A DNA stretch of 64,000 bases from Escherichia coli (lineage in GTDB: Bacteria; Pseudomonadota; Gammaproteobacteria; Enterobacterales; Enterobacteriaceae). Within the stretch, counting starts at the first letter, position 1; the number at the start of each line of letters is the position of its first letter. The stretch lies in assembly GCF_003334785.1 (NCBI RefSeq), contig NZ_QOWV01000001.1, one strand, 5' to 3'. Made by a program: the position numbers and the translations under genes. The notes under the pieces were generated by a model. That model was not told the DNA's origin, did not search any database, and was given only the letters and a program-made list of their open reading frames with translations. This document shows, one piece after another, positions 18,098 through 24,465 of this stretch.

Positions 18098-19051
18098 TTA
18101 ACCTATCTCCTGTAACGCGTGTCTCTGGCGTTCGACGATATTGGTCCACAAATTGTCTTTATCGTCAGTCCATAAATTAATCAGCAAGGCAAAAAAGCGT
18201 TCTGCTGCTGGAGAAAGTACGGCATCTTTACGGCGAATTATTCCCAATGTTCGACGTATAACGGGTTCCACCAATGGGATACCAATAATCGAAGAATAGG
18301 GCGCATGAGGCATTGCCAGGCCAGGAAGCGCCGAAATCCCCAGTCCCGCCTCCACCAGTCCTAATGACGTCGAAAGATGACGCACTTCGTAAAACCAGTC
18401 CAGCTTCCAGGGCTTGTCGGCCAGCTGTTGTTCTATCAACAGTCGGTTGCCGCTGGAGGAGCGTACGCCAATCATTTTGTAACCCACTAACTCCTGCCAT
18501 TCTACAAGCTGCTTTTTGGCCAATGGATGGTCACGCCGACAGGCCAGCACGAACGGCTCGTTGACCAGTGGGGTAAAATCAATGGATGAATTTGTGACGT
18601 TGTTCATGTTTATGCCAAAGTCTGATTCGTTACACAGCACCGATTCCATGCAATTATTCGTGCCTTGTTCCAGAATCCGCACTTTAATATTGGGATACAG
18701 CTCATTAAATTTACCGATTGCCAGCGGTAAAAAATAAAATACTGCGGTCGGAATACACGCTAACGTCACCATACCACGATGATAAGCATTCATATCACGA
18801 ATATTAAAAAGCGTTTCATCGAATTTCTTTATTAATTCCCGCGCCTCCGGGAGCAACCTTTTTCCTGCTTTTGTTAACGTAACCTTGCGAGTTGTACGCT
18901 CAAATAGTTGAATATGTAAATCTTCCTCCATCTTTTTTATTCTTCGCGTTAATGCAGGTTGCGTAATATTGAGTAATTTAGCGGCATTGTTAAACGAACT
19001 GGACTCTGCCAGTATGACAAATGCCTTCATACTTGATAATTCATGCTTCAT
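18098..19051 (-). CDS. ybhD: LysR-family transcriptional regulator
   Basis: Start placed at MKHELSSMKAF; N-terminal HTH; 317 aa; divergent from ybhH. Confidence 0.85.
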   Translation of the reverse strand: MKHELSSMKAFVILAESSSFNNAAKLLNITQPALTRRIKKMEEDLHIQLFERTTRKVTLTKAGKRLLPEARELIKKFDETLFNIRDMNAYHRGMVTLACIPTAVFYFLPLAIGKFNELYPNIKVRILEQGTNNCMESVLCNESDFGINMNNVTNSSIDFTPLVNEPFVLACRRDHPLAKKQLVEWQELVGYKMIGVRSSSGNRLLIEQQLADKPWKLDWFYEVRHLSTSLGLVEAGLGISALPGLAMPHAPYSSIIGIPLVEPVIRRTLGIIRRKDAVLSPAAERFFALLINLWTDDKDNLWTNIVERQRHALQEIG

Positions 19052-19234
19052 TATTACTCCGGAAAATGGAAGCGACGATTTTGGGTGGCTGGCCGTTAAA
19101 AATTTTAACTGCATTTAGCCAACTTAAATTAATGAAAAAATGTTATTAATCGTTGAGCTAAAGTCATTAGAGATGCTTTGCCCTTAATGTAACCATATCG
19201 CAATAAGTTATGTTTTTAAATTGAGGGCATTATT

Positions 19235-20287
19235 ATGAAAAAAATACCCTGCGTGATGATGCGAGGTGGAACCTCGAGGGGCGCGTTCCTGTTAGCGGAA
19301 CATTTACCCGAAGATCAAACGCAGCGCGATAAAATATTGATGGCAATTATGGGTTCCGGTAACGATCTGGAAATTGACGGTATTGGCGGCGGTAATCCAC
19401 TGACCAGTAAAGTCGCCATTATTAGCCGTTCCAGCGATCCGCGTGCTGATGTCGATTATCTGTTTGCGCAGGTAATCGTTCATGAGCAACGTGTCGATAC
19501 CACGCCTAACTGCGGCAATATGCTGTCTGGTGTTGGGGCATTCGCCATTGAAAATGGTTTGATTGCAGCGACTTCGCCAGTTACTCGCGTACGTATCCGC
19601 AACGTCAATACGGGTACGTTCATCGAAGCTGATGTGCAAACGCCAAATGGTGTTGTCGAGTACGAGGGTAGCGCCAGAATTGACGGCGTACCGGGTACTG
19701 CCGCACCGGTTGCGCTCACTTTCCTGAATGCCGCTGGAACCAAAACCGGAAAAGTTTTCCCGACTGATAATCAGATTGATTATTTTGACGATGTCCCGGT
19801 GACCTGTATCGATATGGCGATGCCAGTCGTCATTATTCCGGCTGAATATCTGGGAAAAACAGGTTATGAATTACCGGCGGAACTGGATGCCGACAAAGCA
19901 TTATTAGCCCGCATTGAATCTATCCGTCTACAAGCGGGTAAAGCAATGGGCTTAGGTGATGTCAGTAATATGGTTATCCCTAAACCTGTGCTTATTTCTC
20001 CAGCGCAGAAAGGCGGGGCAATTAATGTGCGTTATTTTATGCCGCATTCTTGCCATCGCGCGCTGGCGATAACCGGTGCTATTGCTATTTCCAGTAGTTG
20101 TGCATTGGAAGGCACCGTCACCCGACAAATCGTCCCTTCTGTAGGATACGGCAATATCAATATTGAACACCCCAGTGGTGCGCTCGACGTTCATTTAAGT
20201 AATGAAGGTCAGGATGCCACGACGTTACGCGCATCTGTTATTCGGACGACCAGAAAAATATTTTCCGGTGAAGTTTATCTTCCCTGA
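19235..20287 (+). CDS. ybhH: PrpF/AcnD-accessory-like isomerase family protein
   Basis: 350-aa ORF; the family assignment is from memory. Confidence 0.8.
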   Translation: MKKIPCVMMRGGTSRGAFLLAEHLPEDQTQRDKILMAIMGSGNDLEIDGIGGGNPLTSKVAIISRSSDPRADVDYLFAQVIVHEQRVDTTPNCGNMLSGVGAFAIENGLIAATSPVTRVRIRNVNTGTFIEADVQTPNGVVEYEGSARIDGVPGTAAPVALTFLNAAGTKTGKVFPTDNQIDYFDDVPVTCIDMAMPVVIIPAEYLGKTGYELPAELDADKALLARIESIRLQAGKAMGLGDVSNMVIPKPVLISPAQKGGAINVRYFMPHSCHRALAITGAIAISSSCALEGTVTRQIVPSVGYGNINIEHPSGALDVHLSNEGQDATTLRASVIRTTRKIFSGEVYLP

Positions 20288-20362
20288 AAAAATTCGTTGT
20301 CAGGATAAGGACAATCAATAAAGGACTTCTGTATGAGTCATACAGAAAGAACAGGATTTTAA

Positions 20363-21796
20363 ATGAATAAGAAATCGTTATGGAAGCTAATTCTGATATT
20401 AGCGATCCCATGTATTATTGGTTTTATGCCAGCTCCGGCAGGATTAAGCGAACTGGCGTGGGTGCTTTTTGGTATTTACCTGGCGGCCATTGTGGGGCTG
20501 GTTATCAAGCCTTTCCCGGAACCTGTCGTACTGTTAATTGCCGTTGCTGCCTCAATGGTGGTGGTCGGTAACTTATCCGACGGTGCGTTTAAAACCACCG
20601 CCGTATTAAGCGGTTACTCTTCAGGTACCACCTGGCTGGTGTTCTCGGCGTTTACCTTAAGCGCCGCATTTGTGACCACCGGTTTAGGTAAACGTATTGC
20701 CTATCTGCTGATTGGTAAAATCGGTAACACCACGCTGGGTCTGGGTTACGTTACGGTATTCCTCGATCTGGTACTGGCTCCGGCAACACCGTCTAACACC
20801 GCGCGTGCGGGCGGCATTGTGTTACCGATCATCAACAGCGTGGCGGTGGCTTTGGGGTCCGAACCGGAAAAAAGTCCGCGTCGTGTCGGACATTACCTGA
20901 TGATGTCCATTTACATGGTCACCAAAACCACCAGCTATATGTTCTTTACCGCAATGGCGGGGAACATTCTGGCGCTGAAAATGATCAACGACATTCTGCA
21001 CCTGCAAATTAGCTGGGGTGGATGGGCGCTGGCAGCCGGATTGCCGGGCATCATTATGCTGCTGGTCACCCCGCTGGTGATTTACACCATGTATCCACCA
21101 GAAATTAAGAAGGTGGATAACAAAACCATCGCTAAAGCGGGCCTTGCCGAACTAGGACCGATGAAAATCCGCGAAAAAATGCTGCTCGGTGTCTTTGTGC
21201 TGGCGCTGCTGGGCTGGATTTTCAGTAAGTCTCTGGGGGTTGATGAATCCACCGTGGCAATCGTTGTTATGGCAACCATGCTGCTGCTGGGTATCGTTAC
21301 CTGGGAAGACGTGGTTAAAAATAAAGGCGGCTGGAATACCTTAATCTGGTACGGCGGTATTATCGGCTTAAGCTCCTTATTATCGAAAGTTAAATTCTTC
21401 GAATGGTTAGCTGAAGTCTTTAAAAATAACCTGGCATTTGATGGTCACGGTAACGTTGCTTTCTTCGTTATTATTTTCCTCAGCATTATCGTGCGTTATT
21501 TCTTCGCTTCCGGTAGTGCCTATATCGTTGCTATGTTACCGGTATTTGCCATGCTGGCGAACGTCTCCGGCGCACCGTTAATGTTAACCGCGCTGGCACT
21601 GTTGTTCTCCAACTCCTATGGCGGCATGGTTACTCACTATGGCGGCGCGGCAGGTCCGGTCATCTTTGGCGTGGGTTATAACGATATTAAATCCTGGTGG
21701 TTGGTCGGTGCGGTACTGACGATATTAACCTTCCTGGTGCATATCACCCTCGGCGTGTGGTGGTGGAATATGCTGATCGGCTGGAACATGCTGTAA
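20363..21796 (+). CDS. ybhI: DASS-family anion (di/tricarboxylate-type) transporter
   Basis: 477-aa polytopic membrane ORF. Confidence 0.82.
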   Translation: MNKKSLWKLILILAIPCIIGFMPAPAGLSELAWVLFGIYLAAIVGLVIKPFPEPVVLLIAVAASMVVVGNLSDGAFKTTAVLSGYSSGTTWLVFSAFTLSAAFVTTGLGKRIAYLLIGKIGNTTLGLGYVTVFLDLVLAPATPSNTARAGGIVLPIINSVAVALGSEPEKSPRRVGHYLMMSIYMVTKTTSYMFFTAMAGNILALKMINDILHLQISWGGWALAAGLPGIIMLLVTPLVIYTMYPPEIKKVDNKTIAKAGLAELGPMKIREKMLLGVFVLALLGWIFSKSLGVDESTVAIVVMATMLLLGIVTWEDVVKNKGGWNTLIWYGGIIGLSSLLSKVKFFEWLAEVFKNNLAFDGHGNVAFFVIIFLSIIVRYFFASGSAYIVAMLPVFAMLANVSGAPLMLTALALLFSNSYGGMVTHYGGAAGPVIFGVGYNDIKSWWLVGAVLTILTFLVHITLGVWWWNMLIGWNML

Positions 21797-21926
21797 ATAT
21801 TCTCGTCATACTTCAAGTTGCATGTGCTGCGTCTGCGTTCGCTCACCCCAGTCACTTACTTATGTAAGCTCCTGGGGATTCACTCGCTTGTCGCCTTCCT
21901 GCAACTCGAATTATTTAGAGTATATC
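21797..21926. repeat. ERIC (IRU) element
   Basis: Contains cgctcaccccagtcacttactt and atgtaagctcctggggattcac, the canonical ERIC core inverted repeat. Confidence 0.85.
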
Positions 21927-21978
21927 CATTTATTATCTTTCTGCGCACTTCACGGTGCGCAGATATCTGGAGCATTTG

Positions 21979-24240
21979 ATGATCAAGTTATCTGAAAAAG
22001 GCGTGTTTCTCGCCAGTAATAACGAAATAATTGCCGAAGAACATTTCACCGGCGAAATTAAAAAAGAAGAAGCCAAAAAAGGCACTATTGCCTGGTCTAT
22101 TCTCTCTTCGCATAATACGTCCGGAAATATGGATAAACTTAAAATTAAGTTTGATTCATTAGCCTCTCACGATATTACCTTTGTTGGTATTGTACAGACC
22201 GCTAAAGCGTCCGGTATGGAACGTTTCCCGCTGCCGTATGTGCTGACCAACTGCCATAACTCACTCTGCGCCGTCGGCGGCACTATTAACGGTGATGACC
22301 ATGTTTTTGGTTTATCGGCGGCCCAGCGTTATGGCGGTATTTTTGTGCCTCCGCATATTGCGGTCATCCATCAATATATGCGTGAGATGATGGCAGGCGG
22401 CGGCAAAATGATCCTCGGGTCAGACAGCCACACCCGTTACGGTGCATTAGGGACAATGGCAGTCGGTGAGGGCGGCGGTGAGTTGGTAAAACAGCTGCTT
22501 AATGACACCTGGGATATCGACTATCCGGGCGTGGTTGCGGTGCATCTGACCGGAAAACCTGCGCCGTATGTGGGGCCACAGGATGTGGCGCTGGCTATCA
22601 TTGGCGCGGTGTTCAAAAACGGTTACGTCAAAAACAAAGTCATGGAGTTCGTTGGACCGGGCGTTAGCGCGCTCTCTACCGATTTCCGTAACAGCGTTGA
22701 CGTGATGACCACTGAAACGACCTGTTTAAGTTCTGTCTGGCAAACCGATGAAGAAGTCCATAACTGGCTGGCGCTGCACGGTCGCGGCCAGGATTACTGC
22801 CAGCTTAACCCTCAACCGATGGCGTACTACGATGGCTGCATCAGCGTTGATTTAAGCGCCATCAAACCAATGATTGCGCTGCCGTTCCACCCGAGCAACG
22901 TGTATGAAATCGACACACTGAACCAGAACCTGACCGACATTCTGCGTGAGATTGAAATTGAGTCCGAACGCGTGGCGCACGGTAAAGCCAAACTCTCGCT
23001 GCTGGATAAAGTGGAAAATGGTCGCCTGAAAGTGCAGCAGGGGATTATCGCGGGCTGTTCTGGCGGTAACTACGAAAACGTCATCGCGGCGGCGAATGCA
23101 CTGCGCGGTCAATCCTGTGGCAATGACACCTTCTCGCTGGCAGTTTACCCGTCATCACAGCCGGTGTTTATGGATCTCGCCAAAAAAGGTGTGGTAGCAG
23201 ATTTGATTGGCGCAGGCGCAATCATCAGAACCGCGTTCTGCGGCCCATGCTTTGGCGCGGGCGATACGCCAATCAACAACGGTTTGAGTATTCGCCACAC
23301 CACGCGTAACTTCCCGAACCGCGAAGGCTCTAAGCCAGCTAATGGGCAGATGTCAGCGGTGGCGTTGATGGACGCTCGTTCTATCGCTGCGACTGCGGCA
23401 AACGGTGGCTATTTAACCTCTGCCAGCGAACTTGATTGCTGGGACAACGTGCCGGAGTACGCCTTCGATGTAACGCCGTATAAAAACCGTGTTTATCAGG
23501 GCTTTGTGAAAGGGGCAACTCAGCAACCGCTGATTTACGGGCCGAACATTAAAGACTGGCCGGAATTGGGTGCGCTGACTGACAATATCGTCCTGAAAGT
23601 GTGCTCGAAGATCCTCGACGAAGTGACCACCACCGACGAACTGATTCCTTCCGGTGAAACCTCTTCTTATCGTTCAAATCCGATTGGTCTGGCGGAGTTT
23701 ACCCTGTCTCGCCGCGATCCCGGTTATGTTAGCAGAAGTAAAGCGACTGCTGAGCTGGAAAATCAGCGTCTGGCGGGGAATGTCAGCGAGCTGACAGAGG
23801 TGTTTGCGCGCATTAAGCAGATTGCTGGTCAGGAGCATATTGATCCGCTGCAAACTGAAATTGGCAGCATGGTCTATGCGGTGAAACCAGGCGATGGTTC
23901 TGCGCGTGAACAGGCGGCGAGCTGCCAGCGTGTGATTGGCGGTCTGGCGAATATTGCCGAGGAGTACGCGACTAAACGCTATCGTTCTAACGTCATCAAC
24001 TGGGGGATGTTACCGCTGCAAATGGCGGAAGTACCAACCTTTGAAGTGGGGGATTACATTTACATCCCTGGCATTAAAGCGGCGCTGGATAATCCGGGTA
24101 CGACGTTTAAAGGTTATGTGATCCATGAAGATGCGCCGGTAACGGAAATTACGCTCTATATGGAAAGTCTGACTGCTGAAGAGCGCGAGATTATCAAGGC
24201 GGGTAGTTTGATTAACTTCAATAAAAACCGTCAGATGTAA
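21979..24240 (+). CDS. ybhJ: Aconitase-family protein
   Basis: Start placed at [10 protein letters not shown] with a GGAG RBS; 753 aa. Confidence 0.85.
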
Positions 24241-24249
24241 AAAGCGCCA

Positions 24250-24465
<216 letters not shown>

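Follow-up and report, generated by a model that had tools for sequence, protein, structure and literature searches.

What compound is the ybhD-ybhHIJ cluster of Escherichia coli built to use? The cluster lies in a 64,000-nucleotide stretch of contig NZ_QOWV01000001.1 (the window), which is 100% identical to E. coli chromosomes and shows the gene order modF...pgl-ybhD-ybhH-ybhI-ybhJ-ybhC-ybhB-bioA. A reading made earlier from the letters of this stretch (the sequence-only reading) had described a LysR-type regulator gene divergent from genes for a PrpF-like isomerase, a DASS-family anion transporter and an aconitase-family protein, and this arrangement was borne out by the open reading frames (ORFs), the RefSeq annotation and the family profile matches; ORFs and RefSeq are concordant on the coordinates of the four genes. 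The interval to which the set had been assigned, 19052-24240, does hold the divergent promoter and ybhHIJ, but the ybhD coding sequence (CDS) lies outside it, the interval opening one base past the start codon. The statement that the set has no assigned substrate agrees with the searchable literature, in which we found for ybhH, ybhI, ybhJ and ybhD no functional characterisation beyond PMC9068703 and no substrate assignment.

The same reading had proposed an uptake and isomerisation/hydration route for an unsaturated di- or tricarboxylate, and comparative genomics, an intact YbhJ active site and synteny support a route of this kind; none of the conditions named in advance as speaking against it applies. 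Among its candidate substrates aconitate stands, most likely as the trans isomer according to the comparative genomics, while methylaconitate and itaconate-type acids are argued against. With some reservation, we favour a model in which ybhD-ybhHIJ is an inducible aconitate route leading from trans-aconitate through cis-aconitate to citrate or isocitrate. Gene order, protein families, active sites, synteny and gene neighbourhoods were observed; YbhD repression of ybhH and the aconitate-isomerase activity of Pseudomonas proteins come from published work; and the substrate, the direction of flux, the mode of transport and the inducer are inferred.

YbhH matches the Pfam PrpF family (3.7e-168), and its own crystal structure has been deposited (6OTV, 'putative isomerase YbhH'). 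RefSeq names it 4-oxalomesaconate (OMA) tautomerase because it passes the cut-off of the NCBIfam model NF033377 for that enzyme, with 515 bits against 440. Its nearest solved relative besides itself is LigU, whose catalytic K66 and C100 correspond to the invariant K59 and C93 of YbhH, at an identity of just 45.5%. Identity reaches 62-64% with a large group from Pseudomonas, Dickeya and Azotobacter (63% to the Pseudomonas and Dickeya orthologs). The Pseudomonas orthologs are found in uptake cassettes in which a LysR gene is divergent from isomerase-SDF-CitMHS-OprD genes, and the Dickeya ortholog in a set in which a LysR gene is divergent from isomerase-MFS-FAH-citC-citD-citE-citF-citX; neither has a gallate or protocatechuate gene nearby. 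Neither the window nor the orthologous loci of six genera hold a dioxygenase, a GalB/LigJ hydratase for OMA or 2-keto-4-carboxy-3-hexenedioate (KCH), or a 4-carboxy-4-hydroxy-2-oxoadipate (CHA) aldolase, and given this missing gallate/protocatechuate context we did not file YbhH in the GalD/LigU family. Against the PrpF 2-methylaconitate isomerase model TIGR02334 YbhH scores 187 bits, under the equivalog cut-off of 440.55, and a prp/acnD context was looked for as well, with no prp genes near ybhH in the window.

Published enzyme assays bear on the possibility of an aconitate isomerase. The supplement of PMC11495376 reports aconitate-isomerase assays of homologs of TarA, among them the Pseudomonas proteins AI-7-1, AI-16-1 and AI-41-1, whose forward activity was 88-101% of that of TarA and whose reverse activity was 107%, 115% and 16%, respectively. 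According to their cloning primers, these three begin with MQRIPCV and end in FRRLAG or LRRLAG (PMC11495376). Such termini are those of the Pseudomonas group of YbhH orthologs, for example P0340 (MQSIPCV...TFRRLAG) and P0368, and on the basis of this match we assign the three assayed proteins to the YbhH family. True PrpF paralogs from the same Pseudomonas strains (MAHVPQ...) showed only 2-21% activity (PMC11495376). Our comparisons thus point to YbhH as a likely aconitate isomerase, and NF033377 probably over-annotates a whole clade made up of YbhH and its Pseudomonas and Dickeya orthologs, some of them with published aconitate-isomerase activity.

YbhJ would provide the next step. The protein matches Pfam Aconitase (6.5e-88, residues 49-478) and Aconitase_C (646-692), and scores 1541 bits against its own NCBIfam family, PRK11413 'hydratase', and 63 against the AcnD model, whose cut-off is 1420. 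We mapped its active site by alignment to pig mitochondrial aconitase, in three stretches, and to family members. The Fe-S ligand check suggested by the sequence-only reading came out in favour of an enzyme: the three cysteines C360, C421 and C424 (C358, C421 and C424 in aconitase) do not vary among 78 family members, and the Ser, His, Asp, Glu and Arg residues needed for catalysis are kept. Specifically, H93, H131, D149, S150, H151 and E246 correspond to aconitase H101, H147, D165, S166, H167 and E262, and R443, R448, R565, S641 and R643 to R447, R452, R580, S642 and R644, the R580 match being by motif position only.

With a YbhJ alignment as query and one genome per species, a scan for homologs returned 80 loci, of which two were from Enterobacterales and 78 from gut or rumen anaerobes, the latter full length and 60-73% identical. 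Their hosts include Lachnospiraceae, Enterocloster, Blautia, Butyrivibrio, Hungatella, about 30 Collinsella, Megasphaera, Acidaminococcus, Synergistales and Treponema; both Bacillota homologs that were scored against PRK11413 pass it with more than 1300 bits. In 15 loci the homolog adjoins genes for citrate synthase (PRK14032, 574 vs 426) and/or isocitrate dehydrogenase (IDH; the NADP-dependent kind, PRK08299, 645 vs 335), and a second kind of dehydrogenase beside YbhJ homologs is a 334-aa protein resembling isocitrate dehydrogenase. All 21 active-site positions compared are the same in E. coli YbhJ and in the 15 citrate synthase/IDH-linked homologs (median identity 70%). These findings are strong, if indirect, evidence that the PRK11413 family is the aconitase of these anaerobes and that YbhJ is catalytically competent; we regard it as likely that YbhJ is a true aconitase.

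Two distant relatives, P0148 (L010, 8001-10115) and P0156 (L011, 1175-3436), with 38-39% identity to YbhJ, were excluded as degenerate, their CGPC cysteines being lost. Several of their catalytic residues are lost too, a Macro-domain gene directly follows each of them, and they may be aconitase-fold proteins that lack catalytic function. In about 30 Collinsella genomes (L038-L066) the YbhJ homolog stands alone beside a MerR/HspR-like gene and the heat-shock genes dnaK-dnaJ-clpB, with no tricarboxylic acid (TCA) cycle or citrate genes within 6 kb.

A similar combination of genes recurs in anaerobes. In five Bacillota loci (L039, Lachnospiraceae JC7; L057, Oribacterium; L082, L084 and L090, other Bacillota metagenome-assembled genome bins) a LysR gene is divergent from genes for a PrpF-like isomerase, a MatC/CitMHS carrier and a YbhJ homolog. 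The isomerases are 37-38% identical to YbhH and keep the catalytic lysine and cysteine. Citrate lyase genes follow the cassette in three of the five; in L039 the operon continues with citD-citE-citF-citC-citX-citG, citC being a fragment, and citD (121 vs 63.5), citF (690 vs 501) and citX (168 vs 105) score above their cut-offs, while CitE is under its own (368 vs 443). The aconitase of the Bacillota cassettes is a close YbhJ ortholog, the isomerase is distant from YbhH, and the carrier and regulator are unrelated or distant to YbhI and YbhD; the module was thus put together more than once, which argues that its steps are functionally coupled. In Acidaminococcus fermentans the YbhJ homolog (66%) lies directly 3' of a MatC carrier gene whose product is 80% identical to that of L039, and this organism is described as fermenting trans-aconitate by way of citrate, oxaloacetate and pyruvate (Hartel and Buckel 1996, as cited in PMC3035267).

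Other neighbourhoods were also recorded. In Cetobacterium the YbhJ homolog adjoins genes of the TctCBA tricarboxylate transporter. On pILYOP01 of Ilyobacter polytropus (L097) it lies near a PrpF gene and isocitrate/isopropylmalate-type dehydrogenase genes, together with genes for a citrate-lyase-family aldolase and a 2-hydroxycarboxylate transporter. The metagenome contig L009 (199-10202) carries a LysR gene, an isocitrate/isopropylmalate-type dehydrogenase gene, a PrpF gene and three aconitase-family genes. These last two clusters, with two or three aconitase-family genes, may represent a fuller tricarboxylate fermentation pathway.

The carrier YbhI scores 554 bits against the DASS model TIGR00785 (cut-off 198.6), and its closest solved structures are the plant proteins DiT1 (2e-83) and DiT2, and LaINDY (1e-69), all of which we take to be exchangers and not Na+ symporters. 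YbhI is predicted by this likeness to be an exchanger-type DASS carrier, which fits aconitate/dicarboxylate antiport; CitT and TtdT are presumably its E. coli paralogs. In lineages with related cassettes the transporter family is swapped (DASS, MFS, SDF/CitMHS or MatC) while the isomerase keeps its regulator. In both Edwardsiella tarda genomes (L004 and L005; 6483-7912) ybhI is split into two frames, covering aa 1-217 and 239-477, and no gene is called at the locus; ybhD, ybhH and ybhJ remain intact, and the E. tarda ybhI is probably a pseudogene.

The profile matches of YbhD were to LysR-family models only, every one under its specific cut-off; the best NCBIfam match, the L-proline-binding regulator PsrA, reached 257 bits against a cut-off of 540 and was treated as uninformative. 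YbhD is 65% identical to the cassette regulator of Klebsiella aerogenes, 59% to that of Dickeya and 54% to that of Pseudomonas, and the divergent LysR/isomerase layout is kept in Citrobacter, Klebsiella, Edwardsiella, Dickeya and Pseudomonas. By these comparisons YbhD and YbhH form an orthologous regulator-isomerase core, whose accompanying transporters and downstream enzymes differ from lineage to lineage. Rodionova et al. 2022 (PMC9068703) reported a ChIP-exo site for YbhD and found ybhH strongly up in a ybhD deletion with no ligand added, so that YbhD represses ybhH; they tentatively labelled the cluster 'L-malate utilisation related'.

E. coli and E. tarda share a conserved block of the control region, at about 19117-19200. 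The E. coli control region contains an ATTAAT-N11-ATTAAT dyad which is the single match in the window, with 0.01 expected by chance. Among the 96 loci compared, the extended form ATTAAT-N13-TAATCG is confined to the spacer between regulator and isomerase genes in E. coli, E. albertii, Citrobacter and Dickeya. A perfect, LysR-box-like palindrome, GTTAAAAATTTTAAC, at about 19095-19109 was dropped for want of conservation in E. tarda, Citrobacter and Dickeya; we consequently prefer the dyad, which is a good candidate for a YbhD operator common to E. coli and Dickeya. A consensus promoter scan gave no sigma-70-like site in the ybhD/ybhH spacer and overall fewer sites than in shuffles. Mechanically called ORFs extend further 5' for ybhD (to an ATG at 19114) and ybhJ (to a GTG at 21955), but ortholog alignments favour the shorter RefSeq starts, 19051 and 21979; for ybhJ, the N-terminus MIKL is conserved across phyla, which points to the ATG at 21979.

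Under the aconitate model, YbhI would import the tricarboxylate, probably in exchange for a C4-dicarboxylate or citrate; YbhH would convert trans-aconitate to cis-aconitate by a 1,3-allylic proton shift using Lys59 and Cys93; and YbhJ would hydrate cis-aconitate to citrate or isocitrate, which could join the TCA cycle or, under anaerobic conditions, the citrate lyase route. YbhD bound to the ATTAAT-N11-ATTAAT site in the shared promoter region would silence the operon as long as ligand is lacking; in the presence of aconitate, YbhD should release or activate it. Why such a route would have its own aconitase is a matter of speculation: trans-aconitate inhibits ordinary aconitases (as cited in PMC13188880), or AcnA/AcnB may be low in the anaerobic gut. 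A more specific version would make YbhJ a functional anaerobe-type aconitase, shared through horizontal transfer by Enterobacteriaceae and the gut-anaerobe lineage, whose shell residues H64, C92, V242 and A642 render it insensitive to trans-aconitate, a competitive inhibitor of ordinary aconitases, so that E. coli could import and burn this acid in the gut; it would then feed citrate lyase anaerobically while AcnA/AcnB would be poisoned. We put this version forward tentatively and consider it rather doubtful.

Several observations weigh against the aconitate model, the NF033377 score of YbhH being one of them. AI-79 of Providencia rettgeri, whose C-terminus is YbhH-like (GDVYVP against GEVYLP in YbhH), had 0.7% and 0.4% of TarA activity, and its strain grows on trans-aconitate (PMC11495376). 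AI-79 was cloned from an internal Met (MRGGTSK), without its first ~8 residues, that is, the first conserved strand, and since the cloned protein was truncated we take this result as ambiguous. Five positions of YbhJ are unlike mitochondrial aconitase (Q72 to H64, D100 to C92, N258 to V242, N446 to T442 and S643 to A642); the citrate synthase/isocitrate dehydrogenase-linked homologs share these replacements, which are thus a mark of the family and not a loss of function. About 55 of the 78 non-enterobacterial YbhJ loci, all Collinsella included, have no informative neighbours. YbhJ is termed a catalytically inactive aconitase paralog in PMC4054840, which cites Blank et al. 2002 for the finding that ybhJ adds nothing to the residual aconitase activity of acnAB mutants; if one assumes that YbhD keeps the operon repressed, this could account for the nil contribution. 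E. coli W3110 required a foreign isomerase for making trans-aconitate, and we found no report of E. coli growth on trans-aconitate in the searchable literature. The predicted control of the cluster by Nac is unexplained by the model, and the ybhD deletion had a growth phenotype only with L-malate added (both PMC9068703), although antiport by YbhI would also account for an L-malate phenotype in a derepressed mutant.

Could the enzymes act on something other than aconitate? An OMA tautomerase/delta-isomerase like GalD and LigU, with YbhJ hydrating its product, would let E. coli scavenge the ring-fission products of gallate or protocatechuate from gut microbes. The NF033377 match and the residues conserved with LigU, the nearest solved relative, agree with this, and OMA being aconitate with one carboxyl extended to oxalyl, an aconitase-like hydratase for it is conceivable. 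YbhH is nonetheless much closer to the Pseudomonas family with reported aconitate-isomerase activity than to LigU, the aromatic-pathway genes are absent from the window and from the orthologous cassettes, and in other organisms the partner genes encode citrate lyase, citrate synthase, isocitrate dehydrogenase and tricarboxylate carriers, all of which renders this function highly improbable. A somewhat less remote option is another unsaturated acid (2-methylaconitate, itaconate, citraconate, mesaconate or dimethylmaleate) hydrated by YbhJ to a methyl-branched hydroxy acid, on the model of AcnD/PrpF in the methylcitrate cycle or of Mii and dimethylmaleate hydratase in nicotinate fermentation. 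PrpF-fold isomerases and aconitase-family enzymes do act jointly on acids of this type (PMC5690661), the PDB matches of YbhH include the 3-methylitaconate isomerase 3G7K, some databases call YbhJ orthologs '2,3-dimethylmalate dehydratase', four substrate-shell residues are unlike classical aconitase, and the sub-threshold Lachnospiraceae CitE leaves room for a citramalate-type lyase. Against this stand the low score of YbhH on the PrpF model, an active site in YbhJ that is the same as in homologs from citrate synthase/isocitrate dehydrogenase operons, the above-cut-off CitF, CitD and CitX of the anaerobe cassette, and the action of Pseudomonas YbhH orthologs on aconitate, so that we hold a methyl-branched substrate to be unlikely.

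Other alternatives keep aconitate but turn the route round, or dispense with it. As with tbrA-tbrB of Bacillus thuringiensis, YbhJ could supply cis-aconitate from citrate for YbhH to isomerise and YbhI to export as trans-aconitate; aconitate isomerases are reversible, TarA and TbrA are interchangeable, an exchanger may run in both directions, and Enterobacter, Citrobacter and Providencia isolates are reported as trans-aconitate producers (PMC13188880). The orthologous cores, in contrast, are accompanied in Pseudomonas by an OprD porin, SDF and CitMHS, all of them uptake parts, and in Dickeya by citrate lyase, which also closes the Bacillota cassettes, and W3110 made no trans-aconitate without the foreign isomerase; export is quite unlikely. 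We give an equally small chance to the C4-dicarboxylate function put forward by Rodionova et al., in which YbhI would carry malate or 2-oxoglutarate and YbhH and YbhJ would be unrelated or accessory. It draws on the L-malate-dependent phenotype and on the 2-oxoglutarate/malate exchangers DiT1 and DiT2 as nearest solved relatives of YbhI, but neither an allylic isomerase nor an aconitase is needed for malate, the phenotype would be expected just as much were malate or succinate a mere counter-substrate of the exchanger, and it is the isomerase-regulator pair that stays constant while the transporter family changes between lineages. Lastly, the locus could be a cryptic remnant in which YbhJ is catalytically dead or only an Fe-S/redox sensor. 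Besides the inactive-paralog description, deleting ybhJ makes cells sensitive to H2O2 and lowers their NADPH, a repeat element separates ybhI from ybhJ, insertion sequence (IS) elements occur in some strains and ybhI is frameshifted in the two E. tarda genomes. Yet the catalytic and cluster-binding residues of YbhJ are all intact and invariant across phyla, unlike those of P0148 and P0156, 96% of complete E. coli genomes have the locus at full length, and lower NADPH would also fit a lost flux to isocitrate dehydrogenase; decay thus appears very unlikely. We also note that ybhJ was up 18-fold in E. coli grown on Chlamydomonas material (PMC10972114).

Among known systems, tarR-tarAB of Bacillus velezensis FZB42 (PMC11495376) resembles the E. 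coli cluster in having a LysR gene divergent from an operon for a PrpF-superfamily isomerase, an aconitate isomerase in B. velezensis and probably one in E. coli, and a membrane importer, and Table S6 of that paper already lists TarA homologs (~40% identical) from Shigella, E. fergusonii, K. aerogenes and E. tarda. It differs in that the importer TarB belongs to MFS, whereas YbhI is a DASS carrier and not a TarB homolog, that the E. coli cluster adds the dedicated aconitase YbhJ, that YbhH is only ~40% identical to TarA, and that TarR is an activator while YbhD acts as a repressor in the sole published experiment. The Pseudomonas and Dickeya cassettes (L092-L096) share the regulator and isomerase (YbhD 54-59% and YbhH 63% identical) and, in Dickeya, the ATTAAT-N11-ATTAAT site, but they have SDF, CitMHS and an OprD porin (Pseudomonas) or MFS (Dickeya) in place of DASS, and no dedicated aconitase, Dickeya having citrate lyase instead. 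The A. fermentans and Lachnospiraceae/Oribacterium cassettes pair the same YbhJ-family aconitase (61-68% identical) with a carrier and, in the latter, also with a LysR regulator and a PrpF-like isomerase. The Lachnospiraceae/Oribacterium sets are unlike E. coli in the low identity of this isomerase to YbhH, in the MatC/CitMHS carrier and in having citrate lyase in the same operon, where E. coli would draw on its separate cit locus. The ttdR-ttdABT system likewise has a LysR gene divergent from genes for an Fe-S hydro-lyase and a DASS substrate:succinate antiporter and serves anaerobic organic-acid fermentation; TtdAB is class-I fumarase-like, however, and in ttdR-ttdABT and citT/citCDEFXG the isomerase step is absent and the substrates are tartrate and citrate. 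AcnD-PrpF of Shewanella (PMC5690661) also joins an aconitase-family enzyme to a PrpF-fold isomerase on consecutive tricarboxylate steps, but YbhH and YbhJ fall below the PrpF equivalog and AcnD cut-offs and the prp context is absent. LigU and GalD share with YbhH the fold, the catalytic Lys/Cys pair, 1,3-allylic proton-shift chemistry and a passed NF033377, and differ by the 45.5% identity of YbhH to LigU and by the absence of aromatic ring-cleavage genes nearby.

The genes, the regulatory link, the YbhH structure and the kind of system (LysR, PrpF-fold aconitate isomerase and importer, 2024) were thus already known; the present analysis adds the case for reading the E. coli cluster as a tarR-tarAB variant with a DASS exchanger and a dedicated aconitase, and PRK11413 as the aconitase of many gut anaerobes. 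The current names of YbhH (a lignin-pathway oxalomesaconate tautomerase) and YbhJ (an inactive paralog) are probably wrong. If the model is true, E. coli gains a third, anaerobe-type aconitase and a dedicated route for trans-aconitate, an acid abundant in grasses and sugar cane and therefore in the guts of herbivores and humans. The textbook figure of two E. coli aconitases and the 'inactive paralog' label would then no longer stand, the PRK11413 'hydratase' of Lachnospiraceae, Collinsella, Megasphaera and relatives would be their TCA-branch aconitase, and NCBIfam would have to revise its rule for naming the YbhH/Pseudomonas clade.

Table 1. Features of the ybhD-ybhHIJ cluster and its flanks, in window coordinates (ERIC/IRU, enterobacterial repetitive intergenic consensus/intergenic repeat unit; REP/BIME, repetitive extragenic palindrome/bacterial interspersed mosaic element).
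Feature	Position	Strand	Description
ybhD	18098..19051	-	LysR-type transcriptional regulator, 317 aa; ORF and RefSeq CDS
Divergent ybhD/ybhH control region	19052..19234		183 bp, 32.8% GC
Candidate YbhD recognition site, ATTAAT-N11-ATTAAT dyad	19128..19150		LysR T-N11-A type
ybhH	19235..20287	+	PrpF-superfamily allylic isomerase, 350 aa; probable aconitate isomerase
ybhI	20363..21796	+	DASS-family anion carrier, 477 aa; predicted exchanger type
ERIC/IRU repeat, ybhI-ybhJ spacer	21800..21925		Long hairpin if transcribed
ybhJ	21979..24240	+	Aconitase-family [4Fe-4S] hydro-lyase, 753 aa; probable true aconitase
REP/BIME repeat cluster	24250..24460		Between ybhJ and convergent ybhC; end of transcription unit

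Of 5426 complete E. coli genomes, 5235 (~96%) carry the whole cassette at full length. The synteny check outside Escherichia found the four-gene order in Citrobacter, K. aerogenes and E. tarda. The cassette sits between pgl and ybhC in E. coli, E. albertii and Citrobacter; in K. aerogenes it lies between rihC and the citrate-fermentation genes citAB/oadGAB, with an extra carrier gene, and in E. tarda at a chromosomal site other than the pgl-ybhC slot, the four genes travelling together in both. Identity to the E. coli cassette proteins is 84-93% for E. tarda and 65-78% for K. aerogenes, the reverse of the species relationships, and the ~70% identity of YbhJ to clostridial proteins also points to horizontal exchange. 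A plasmid-directed YbhJ search returned only mislabelled E. coli chromosome fragments and anaerobe chromids, with no sign of a plasmid-borne cassette. IS elements lie within or interrupt the cluster in some E. coli: NZ_CP147044.1 (H3) carries IS1A, with ybhI annotated in two pieces, and NZ_AGTD01000001.1 (H1) has ISVsa5 inside the matched stretch.

Acquisition had first been suspected from 5' parts of ybhD, ybhH and ybhI that looked AT-rich by eye. The suspicion is supported, with phylogeny and varying chromosomal position weighing more than base composition, which agreed for one gene out of the three. The first 300 nt of ybhD have 38% GC, the lowest of the 40 long ORFs in the window (mean 52.9, standard deviation (sd) 4.4), whereas those of ybhH (49.3%) and ybhI (48.3%) deviate from the mean by no more than ~1 sd; ybhJ, too, is AT-rich at its 5' end (42.3% GC over the first 300 nt). 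Over whole genes GC is 44.7 for ybhD, 48.8 for ybhH (43.9 at third codon positions, GC3), 49.8 for ybhI and 51.5 for ybhJ, against an ORF mean of 53.4 (sd 2.5).

Finally, the cluster carries two kinds of repeats. In the ERIC repeat between ybhI and ybhJ the ERIC1R primer site (21862-21883) and the ERIC2 site (21840-21861) are exact, and the hairpin folds with -39.7 kcal/mol (z = -4.9); the repeat might uncouple or stabilise ybhJ expression. At the equivalent position K. aerogenes has its extra gene, for a 420-aa CitMHS-type carrier, which we rejected as a counterpart of the MatC carrier of the Bacillota cassettes because the two are not homologous. Downstream of ybhJ, the REP/BIME cluster accounts for several extra megablast places per genome, and the sole Rfam match, the REP-derived naRNA4 (RF02564), lies there at 24335-24405 with 60.7 bits against a gathering score of 59.5.

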